64,000 bases of DNA from contig NC_091476.1 in NCBI RefSeq assembly GCF_036971445.1, positions 6,572,001 through 6,636,000 of the forward strand. The letters are read 5' to 3'. Under the pieces are notes generated by a model. It made no database searches and was not told where the DNA came from. It saw only the letters and a list, made by a program, of their open reading frames with translations. Origin of the DNA: Narcine bancroftii. Lineage: Eukaryota. Positions 22,401-25,400 of this stretch are shown here, one piece after another; position 1 is the first letter of the stretch; each line of letters begins with the position of its first letter. The translations under genes and the position numbers were made by a program.

Positions 22401-25400
22401 AAATTTTTCTTCATCTCAATTTTAAATAGATACCTTCTAATGCTAAGACTGTGCCCTCTTGTCCTGGATTCACCCACCAAGGGAAACATCTTATTCACAT
22501 CTACTCTGTCCAATCCTTTCAGCATTCAAAATGCTTCTATGAGATCGCTTCTCATTCTCTGTACTCCAATGCTGCTAAACGTTCTTCATATGTTAGCCCT
22601 TGCATTCCAGGAATCATCTTGCTAAATCTTCTCTGTACTCTCTCCAATATCATTACATCCCTTCTAAGATAAGGGGCCCAAAACTGCACACAGTTCTCCA
22701 AACGAGGTCTCTCCAATACCTCATAGAGCCTCATCAACACATCTTTACTCTTATACACTATTCCTCTTGAAATGAATACCAACATAGCATTCATTTTCTT
22801 TACTGCCAATCCAACCTGGTGGTTCACCTTTAGGTTATCCTGCTTGATGACCCCCCCCCCCCCCCCCCCCCCCCAGTCCCTTTGCACATCATGAAGGATT
22901 CCCATCACTTTGGTCACCATTTCTTCTCACTGCTACCTTCAAGCACAACATAACCCTGGTCCATTTTTTTCCCCAACAGTTATCAGGCTCACAAATTAGT
23001 CCTAACCATAAACTACTCTCAGACCACCAAAAGACCTGTTGAAAGTTCAGTTTTTCGTCTGCACTCCAATCATGAATATTTATTTATCATTTTATATTTA
23101 TCTCTTTCTATTTGATAGCATACTGTGGTAATTTAATTTGTACTATCTTACATACTGTATCTCTGTGGCTGCAGCAAGCAAGAGTTTTGAGGCATTGGTA
23201 CTCTACTTACGTATATGACAATAAATGCATATTCATAGTAATTGTTCTTTCTTATCAGTCTTGTGTACATTTGATGCATTAATTACAGAAGTGTGGAGAT
23301 ATAGTTACCATGTCAATCAAGTCATTTTGTGTATTTTCCAATTTATGACAAGATCGATTTATGAACATCTGTCAAAATGGAACGCAGTCATTGCCCAGAG
23401 ATGGCCTGTACTCAGACTTTCTTTCCCTTAAGTGGATCTGAATTTCTAATAAGTAATTACATAATTTATACATTTGTTATCATTCAACATTATAGTTATT
23501 AAGTAGGAGTTATTTATATCCTTGGCTGCCTTATCCAACATCACCAGCAACAAATTCAATTCTATCCACCATTGAGGCTTGAGTAATCACTCCATCTACT
23601 TACCAAGAAATCCTATAAAGTAATAAGCATTGTTTGGTTTTCCACCTAAAACTCCTAAAGACTGAGGCATCTTAAAACATTCCTGGAAGAGAAATAAATT
23701 AGAATGTAAAATAAAATGAATTGATCATCACAAGGGCAAAATATTTTAGAACTGATAATCCATGAATAAACAAAAACACGAAATATAAATGAGAAAAATA
23801 ATAAAAGAATAAAGTAGACTGTCAATTCCTTTTAAAACTAAAATATTAATCTTCTGCATGTGTACAATTCTTGAGAACAGCACCATGATTCCACTTTGCC
23901 TGGCGAGCTGAAAGAACCACCATAAACATAAAACTCAGAAGAAAAGCTTTGACAAAACCATAACGGTGGGTCATAGAGTTGCTTCTATTGGGGCCGAAGG
24001 ATGCCCACTGGGTTGTTCTTCACAAACATTCTAGAGCGACTCTAGTTCAAAACAGTCGATGGGCAGTTAGCCAACGTCTGCCTCGTGCTGTTGCCCTGCC
24101 TTGGCTCCAACTCAGCATCGCCTTCCTTTCATAATGTTACTATCACTTCTTGCTTTCAAAGCATCTCCAAGATTATTCTCGAATGACTAAGCATTGAATT
24201 CAAGAGTCTTCTGACAAAGCCTTTGAGAAAGCCGTGCTGGATTTAAACTTGCCTTTAACGCGTTGATGTAAACTGGATTTAAACTTGCCTTTAACGCGTT
24301 GATGTAAACTAGATTGAAACTTGCCTTTAACGCGTTGATATAAACTGGATTTAAACTTGCCTTTAACGCGTTGATGTAAACTGGATTTAAACTTGCCTTT
24401 AACGCGTTGATGTAAACTGGATTTAAACTTGCCTTTAACGCGTTGATATAAACTGGATTTAAACTTGCCTTTAACGCGTTGATGTAAACTGGATTTAAAC
24501 TTGCCTTTAACGCGTTGATGTAAACTGGATTTAAACTTGCCTTTAACGCGTTGATGTAAACTGGATTTAAACTTGCCTTTAACGCGTTGATGTAAACTGG
24601 ATTGAAACTTGGCTTTAACGCGTTGATGTAAACTGGATTGAAACTTGCCTTTAACGCGTTGATGTAAACTGGATTGAAACTTGCCTTTAACGCGTTGATG
24701 TAAACTGGATTGAAACTTGCCTTTAACGCGTTGATGTAAACTGGATTGAAACTTGCCTTTAACGCGTTGATGTAAACTAGATTGAAACTTGCCTTTAACG
24801 CGTTGATATAAACTGGATTTAAACTTGCCTTTAACGCGTTGATGTAAACTGGATTTAAACTTGCCTTTAACGCGTTGATGTAAACTGGATTTAAACTTGC
24901 CTTTAACGCGTTGATGTAAACTGTATTGAAACTTGCCTTTAACGCGTTGATGTAAACTGGATTGAAACTTGCCTTTAACGCGTTGATGTAAACTGGATTG
25001 AAACTTGCCTTTAACGCGTTGATGTAAACTGGATTGAAACTTGCCTTTAACGCGTTGATGTAAACTGGATTTAAACTTGCCTTTAACGCGTTGATGTAAA
25101 CTGGATTGATGTGGTTGATTCCCATACGGAGAGGTATAATCAGCAAAAGTGGCTTCCAATCCCGATGGGGCACAGAATCAGGCTGGTTTTTGGGAACATC
25201 ACCTCGGTACAGAGAGGCATCAGTTTGTAACCTGCAATTCTCCGACCAATGTTTGCACAGTTTCTCTGAAACAATTTTAAAAATAAAAAAAATTAAGAAA
25301 TGCACAGATTTAAAGCAGTAACCAATGGCGTGTACAAAGGAAAGGTGTAATTTTTTTTTTCAAGTGGCTTAGTTAAGTTCCATCATTGAACATTAAAAGG

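Follow-up and report, generated by a model that had tools for sequence, protein, structure and literature searches.

In the electric ray Narcine bancroftii, a cartilaginous fish, the GC 5' splice site of ATG4A exon 8 is reiterated head to tail in intron 8 as part of a 36-bp minisatellite of 24 copies, and the normal 400-aa protease is the product of the first of these donors (donor 1) joined to exon 9 in spliced RNA. We consider it likely that the array is a young, near-neutral minisatellite born by slippage, of the donor-spanning kind known from human F7, IFI6 and CBS and from the 'mirage' arrays, with donor 1 dominant. At the level of contigs from one study, and in the annotated protein, the most upstream donor dominates splicing. 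All coordinates refer to the window, i.e. the whole analysed stretch of 64 000 nt (contig NC_091476.1, positions 6 572 001 to 6 636 000), and the features are collected in Table 1.

Table 1. ATG4A and its reiterated exon 8 donor in the window (a slash in a donor marks the exon end)
Feature	Coordinates	Strand	Evidence
ATG4A gene, 13 coding exons, 400 aa if intron 8 is spliced at donor 1	13400..56033	-	tblastn with shark ATG4A; exon model with GT/GC-AG ends
Exon 8, 185 nt, end ...GINHINPVYINALK	25081..25265	-	exon model; aligns to human ATG4A 2P82 chain positions 214-243
Exon-side microhomology TCAATCCAG, array left boundary	25101..25109	-	sequence comparison
36-bp minisatellite, 24.2 copies	24237..25107	-	TRF; motif scan; genome pattern search
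Authentic GC 5' splice site AAG/GCAAGTTT (donor 1)	25073..25083	-	X5 contig links unique exon 8 to exon 9
23 downstream donor copies (22 GC, 1 CC), exon ends 25045 ... 24253	24244..25045	-	motif positions; unused in contig joints listed
14th site AAG/CCAAGT, exon end 24613, donor lost by G>C	24605..24615	-	motif scan
Intron-side microhomology TAAATCCAG, array right boundary	24237..24245	-	8/9 identical to exon-side copy
Intron 8 unique remainder, polypyrimidine tract and AG acceptor (...ttccag)	23683..24236	-	sequence; exon model
In-frame stop reached if all donors are read through	24187..24189	-	exon model
Exon 9, 79 nt, ECFKMPQSLGVLGGKPNNAYYFIGFL, carries the GGKPN loop	23604..23682	-	tblastn; exon model; joined to both exon 10 and the end of exon 8 in 3/3 RNA-type runs

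The original prediction, made from the letters alone, had named the gene as ATG4A, numbered its exons and placed a GC-AG donor between the catalytic residues, all of which is supported by tblastn and the 13-exon model. In this refined model the catalytic Cys lies in exon 4, GGKPN in exon 9 and Asp/His in exon 10, and every intron is GT-AG apart from intron 8, which is GC-AG. Intron 8 has the features of a U2-type GC-AG intron, namely a GC donor that is otherwise near consensus, an AG acceptor and a joint found in the RNA-type runs only. Donor 1 scores 8/11 against the U1-complementary consensus, and among rival GT donors in exon 8 and intron 8 a single site reaches 7/11 (exon end 25232). The same codon bears an intron in the ATG4B paralogue (C21) too, its donor being GT. 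Translation from the ATG at 56033 via donor 1 gives 400 aa, letter-identical to RefSeq XP_069748875.1 of Narcine bancroftii (P0059). The name of this record is without the isoform suffix that several relatives' records have, which, going by NCBI naming practice, we take to mean a single annotated isoform. Two in-frame ATGs lie 7 codons apart (56012-56033, minus strand) and serve as starts for 400 and 393 aa; the records of relatives show both short and long N-termini. Exon 2 (53247-53146, minus strand) is 3 residues shorter than in shark ATG4A; a different acceptor may account for this, as Heterodontus also has a 400-aa isoform X2.

By TRF the array has a period of 36, 24.2 copies, 97% matches and 0% indels over 24237-25107, and its unit consists of the final 27 nt of exon 8 and the initial 9 nt of intron 8. 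The first unit (25107-25072) crosses the donor at 25081 and thus straddles the exon-intron boundary. The motif AAG[G/C]CAAGT occurs on the minus strand at 24 exon ends (25081-36n), 23 of them GC and one CC, so that 22 intact GC copies and the CC copy follow donor 1 in intron 8; outside the array it matches only at 56539 in the window, and on the plus strand nowhere. TRF and the motif scan thereby bear out the 36-bp unit and the 24 sites, 23 intact plus the CC at 24613, that had been read from the letters. A 25-nt pattern searched with at most one mismatch across the 3.33-Gb genome gave 24 matches, every one in the ATG4A array, and its reversed control gave 0 matches in the same genome. The unit is free of stops in the ATG4A frame and its sites are 36 nt apart, leaving the frame open through the whole array, as had been claimed, and the exon model confirms the stop at 24187-24189 that had been expected on read-through beyond all donors. 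Two of the earlier figures stood in part. The added 12-mers hold to the form AS(L/F)NPVYINALK in 19 of the 23 cases, the other four being one with Pro>Thr, two with Pro>Leu and one that is Pro-initial; and the hypothetical ladder, given as 393 to 669 aa, would run from 400 to 676 aa from the upstream ATG at 56033, the value of 393 aa holding from the second ATG.

An array whose copies are 97% alike and indel-free, and which no record seen crosses, could in principle be one or a few copies inflated by the assembler, a case that the original prediction had named as one refutation. The contigs of the DNA run X1 speak against it. The X1 contig of unique intron sequence breaks off at 24266, after exactly 30 letters of the array, as would be expected of a repeat branching there at Logan's word length of 31. 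In the bin with the array end the X1 depth is 84.4, compared with 3.7-4.6 in the five preceding unique bins, a roughly 20-fold increase that is not a copy number and comes from a run that may be the assembled sample itself. Variants are moreover shared between units in ordered blocks: a pair at units 9-10 recurs 13 units on, at units 22-23, and the A/C variant at position 36 occurs in runs. With DNA contig break, depth and ordered variants all pointing the same way, an assembly artefact is unlikely, and we assign it next to no probability; the count of exactly 24 copies rests on the assembly.

For donor use we relied on contigs of X1 and of three RNA-type runs (X5, X6 and X7; one study, three of the four runs listed) aligned to 20600-24300, a region that covers exons 9-10 and only the final 64 letters of the array. 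None of X5, X6 and X7 is recorded as RNA; their status is a guess by the program, supported by the exon joints missing in X1. The junction of any donor maps to the last unit, and the letters before the 27-mer separate donor 1 from the others. A joint 23681>24252, which leaves out the 570 nt that follow the last donor position, is present in X5, X6 and X7 (depth 554.7, 104.4 and 73.5; one contig each, side 28 letters) and absent from X1; the exon 9-10 joint likewise is found in X5, X6 and X7 (332.5, 104.4 and 85.7) and absent in X1. The match ends at 24279 in all three RNA-type runs, which is where the letters of exon 8 part from those of the array. Behind this point, the loose end of the X5 contig consists of unique exon 8 in reverse complement, for at least 255 letters. 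Record 17 of X6 is a 3663-nt contig with a depth of 104.4 at both joints that continues for about 2.2 kb without an array match; this extension fits exons 1-8, perhaps plus the head-to-head PSMD10 transcript. Since the contigs bridging intron 8 match the 27 exon-derived letters alone and enter unique exon 8 where this is visible, they indicate donor 1, directly in X5 and by inference in X6, the joint of X7 showing the 27-nt exon end only. The data thus lean towards the outcome that the original prediction had set against itself, a near-neutral minisatellite with the donor at 25081 in use, contig joints and annotated protein both being of the donor-1 form. The share of words recovered in the RNA-type runs (0.46-0.47) was rejected as proof of the array in mRNA, exons and intronic contigs alone making up about 0.43 of the distinct words (computed word counts, summed by hand), and intron 8 bins without cover were left out of the evidence. 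At 21340, in an intron, the X5 contig has a 1-nt deletion that is missing from X1, X6 and X7, pointing to a second allele or another individual.

How much room these contigs leave for further donors can be estimated roughly. The depth left over on the array letters is 66, 22 and 174 for X5, X6 and X7 (rough arithmetic), i.e. 2.8, 0.9 and 7.3 per copy after division by 24, compared with 5.6 in DNA; unique intron bins range from 0 to 11.5. As the left-over depth per copy is about that of the unique intron bins, nascent RNA alone can explain the array depth. Rough ceilings for one-unit insertions are ~12-20% in X5 and 21% in X6, and X7, with 174 per array letter and 73.5 at its joint, sets none. 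A minor leak to donors 2-4 may be compatible with the contigs, because contigs drop rare forms. Donors 2-4 would give exons of 221-293 nt, below the exon size limit near 300 nt, compared with 185 nt for donor 1 and 1013 nt for donor 24. We therefore weighed a constitutive, unregulated leak, in which donors 2 and 3, perhaps 4, take ~5-20% of splicing and yield +12, +24 and +36-aa forms that are probably impaired. Their in-frame products would escape nonsense-mediated decay (NMD), the left-over depth leaves room for them, most of all in X7, and according to the accessible text of PMC1557585, IFI6 and CBS each splice at two pseudo-sites besides the authentic one. Against this, no downstream-donor joint occurs among the 15 joints listed of 99 (1007 loose ends lie outside that list), in each run the intron is bridged by one contig, whose side is 28, and the Narcine bancroftii protein among the listed members of the protein clusters is the donor-1 form, with no insertion form beside it (12 of the 27 members of the larger cluster are unlisted). 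On balance we regard such a leak as unlikely.

The original prediction had gone further and proposed a regulated 'dial', in which controlled donor choice adds up to 23 extra 12-aa segments and thereby tunes LC3/GABARAP processing. The unit being stop-free and a multiple of 3 in length, any such product would be in frame and escape NMD. The junction lies inside a helix predicted at residues 244-255 of the ATG4 protein P0002 (AlphaFold, moderate confidence with a mean pLDDT of 60.7, used for secondary structure only), whose start the unit repeats, so one copy could preserve the fold with the others looped out. By alignment, the insertion would begin 3-4 residues past the position that corresponds to ATG4A Ile233/ATG4B Leu232, which touches the substrate according to the portion of PMC5799747 available, and this closeness counts in favour of the dial. 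However, one unit length in three would be in frame by chance, and the donor consensus dictates two of the three intronic codons. The segment itself is invariant in length: 25 residues separate PLR[LM]G from [GS]GKP in 61 of 61 ATG4 proteins, from wasp to birds (38 matches to an exon 8 plus array query and 23 cluster members, one being Narcine bancroftii's own). None of the 38 matches, drawn from 8000 scored candidates and 196-627 residues long, is a repeat-bearing ATG4. One candidate for a repeat-bearing form, P0003 (88% query cover), was rejected, its gene model containing blocks of exons that are duplicated. The array carries five kinds of substitution, one silent, two at Pro, one Leu/Phe and one donor-destroying; four of the five change an amino acid (small numbers), and the two at Pro strike a residue that all 25 aligned proteins share. 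Nothing in these substitutions, few as they are, points to coding constraint on the units. In F7, moreover, the more distant a donor, the less it is used, with exon skipping taking its place (PMC1557585, as far as its accessible text goes). With the RNA-type contigs and the annotated protein pointing to donor 1 and no segment indel in any of the 61 proteins, the dial finds no support here, and we give it hardly any credence. The repeat reads ...INALK-ASF, and two wasp ATG4 proteins read alike at the same position (...INGLKASF in P0035 and ...LKTSF in P0038), probably a coincidence arising from the donor consensus.

A related scenario starts from the fact that each GC donor is in frame and brings 27 nt of exon context with it. 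Several donors would be used according to allele length or cell state and give stable but poorly cleaving ATG4A forms that keep the C-terminal tail and carry additional helix-start segments next to the residue in contact with LC3/GABARAP, turning copy number into a rheostat of autophagy priming. We think this quite improbable. If true, it would be the first described GC-donor splice ladder; and should downstream donor use prove to depend on copy number, a VNTR would be tied to a graded loss of an autophagy protease, a result of interest to specialists in splicing and autophagy alike.

Copy number could also act through splicing efficiency, the extra donors serving as U1 decoys or the AACGCGTT cores pairing into a structural brake, so that longer arrays cut splicing and control ATG4A output via retention or skipping of exon 8. 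In favour of this, 22 additional U1-binding sites follow a GC donor at a spacing of 36 nt, the predicted folding of the array is slightly better than that of shuffled versions (z -2.03, matched by 1 in 20 of them), and the title of an article cited in PMC1557585 associates the CBS VNTR with lower activity. The depth of the exon 8-9 joint is nevertheless comparable to that of the exon 9-10 joint in all three runs (554.7/104.4/73.5 against 332.5/104.4/85.7 in X5/X6/X7, contig depths and as such a weak measure), which lends no support to the earlier idea of decoys lowering ATG4A, and amphioxus mirage arrays left regular splicing undisturbed in RT-PCR (PMC3087553, in the sections accessible). A brake of this type thus seems very improbable. 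RNA structure was likewise rejected as a cause of the preference for donor 1, accessibility being similar at all 24 sites (predicted value 0.086 at donor 1 and 0.026-0.149 at the others) and the z of -2.03 for the whole array being modest.

The preferred reading, a near-neutral donor-spanning minisatellite, has precedents. In the accessible text of Borensztajn et al. (2006, PMC1557585), the most upstream donor of the human F7 intron 7 37-bp VNTR wins and distant ones are poorly used: in minigenes, identical pseudo-sites at intervals of 37 nt are able to function but stay unused, removal of upstream sites activates only the next one, distance lowers use in favour of exon skipping, and downstream sites that are stronger, with CV values as high as 91, fail to compete. 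The same text cites a 31-bp VNTR in CBS intron 13, a 100-bp one in LMNB2 and an 81-bp one in PDGF, all donor-spanning with 10-20 copies, and human IFI6 (6-16) intron 2, where the authentic donor is followed by ~25 pseudo-sites (Turri et al. 1995). As far as these descriptions go, F7 and ATG4A are alike in a first monomer lying across the exon/intron boundary, in identical head-to-tail donors ~36-37 nt apart and in the use of the upstream donor, whereas F7 has GT donors, 5-9 copies and 4 exon nt per unit, out of frame, and ATG4A has GC donors, 24 copies and 27 exon nt, in frame. LMNB2 and PDGF use the authentic donor alone, while CBS uses two pseudo-sites; the CBS and LMNB2 units, unlike that of ATG4A, are out of frame. 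IFI6 comes closest in copy number, on the same descriptions, and differs in constitutively using its two nearest pseudo-sites, downstream use being unseen among the listed joints of ATG4A. Amphioxus carries 'mirage' minisatellites in Adh3 and in the globins BflGb6 and BflGb9 (Ebner et al. 2010, PMC3087553, accessible sections). These share with ATG4A a tandemly duplicated exon-intron boundary with its splice signals, block-wise turnover and undisturbed regular splicing, and differ in lineage, in including acceptor-side arrays and in a documented length polymorphism.

Arrays of this kind are already known, and that of ATG4A departs from them modestly, in having GC donors and an in-frame unit that adjoins a residue in contact with the substrate. 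An in-frame unit has a precedent in IFI6, whose 12-nt unit gives short protein ladders, in an extension that, unlike the ATG4A segment, is not known to lie within an enzyme core. In the literature searched, which included few subscription papers, we found no report of a GC-donor minisatellite, of an ATG4A GC-AG intron or of Narcine bancroftii ATG4A; tables of GC-AG introns or VNTRs compiled across genomes might include ATG4A intron 8 of other species. The array adds a cartilaginous-fish example to a known repeat type, with GC instead of GT donors. It is also a natural substrate on which to ask whether the upstream-donor rule of F7 holds for weak GC donors that are copied together with 27 nt of exon context and whose errors are not masked by NMD.

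As to its origin, a near-perfect 9-nt direct repeat brackets the donor: TCAATCCAG and TAAATCCAG would be spaced 36 nt from each other in an allele with one copy, and short direct repeats bounding an array are the usual footprint of slippage. This repeat may have seeded a slippage duplication, with further slippage and unequal exchange then enlarging the array to 24 copies. Seeds of at least 7 letters flank 5 of 12 donors of ATG4A, so the repeat permits slippage and proves no origin. The sole mismatch between the two 9-nt seeds is the common A/C variant of the array, which may have its source in the exon-side seed; a point change would also account for it. CGCG is unbroken in 24 of 24 units, and this lack of CpG decay suggests a young or fast-turning array. 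Each unit also contains the palindrome AACGCGTT (24237-25107), through which units can pair in predicted folds and which might favour slippage.

Once formed, the array would be read by a spliceosome that commits to the most upstream donor, favoured by exon definition, since it closes a normal-sized exon of 185 nt, and by being transcribed first. The 22 intact downstream copies would then be functional, mostly unused pseudo-sites that leave with the intron, and low-level use of donors 2-4 may be noise whose in-frame products are invisible to NMD; nothing suggests selection for these products. The F7 rule would transfer only within limits, the F7 pseudo-sites being GT with 4 nt of duplicated exon, compared with 27 exon letters per GC donor here, letters that possibly carry enhancers, and two pseudo-sites being in use in both IFI6 and CBS.

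Several other features were observed in the window. Exon 1 of PSMD10 (gankyrin; 56499-56612, plus strand, E 1.8e-10) lies head to head with ATG4A, 466 bp from its start codon, a proximity that may explain the long X6 contig. In intron 7, a 64-bp tandem duplication (25997-26147; 2.4 copies, 98%) edges a reverse-transcriptase fragment that, judged by eye, we take to be LINE-like. The same intron has, at 33894-34275 and 30731-31014, tandem arrays of two sorts, degenerate with a 10-bp (CTGTTCCCCA-like) unit and rich in CA/TA. High-copy interspersed repeats with very high DNA and RNA-type depth occupy 22088-22955 in intron 9 and 20600-20723 in intron 10.
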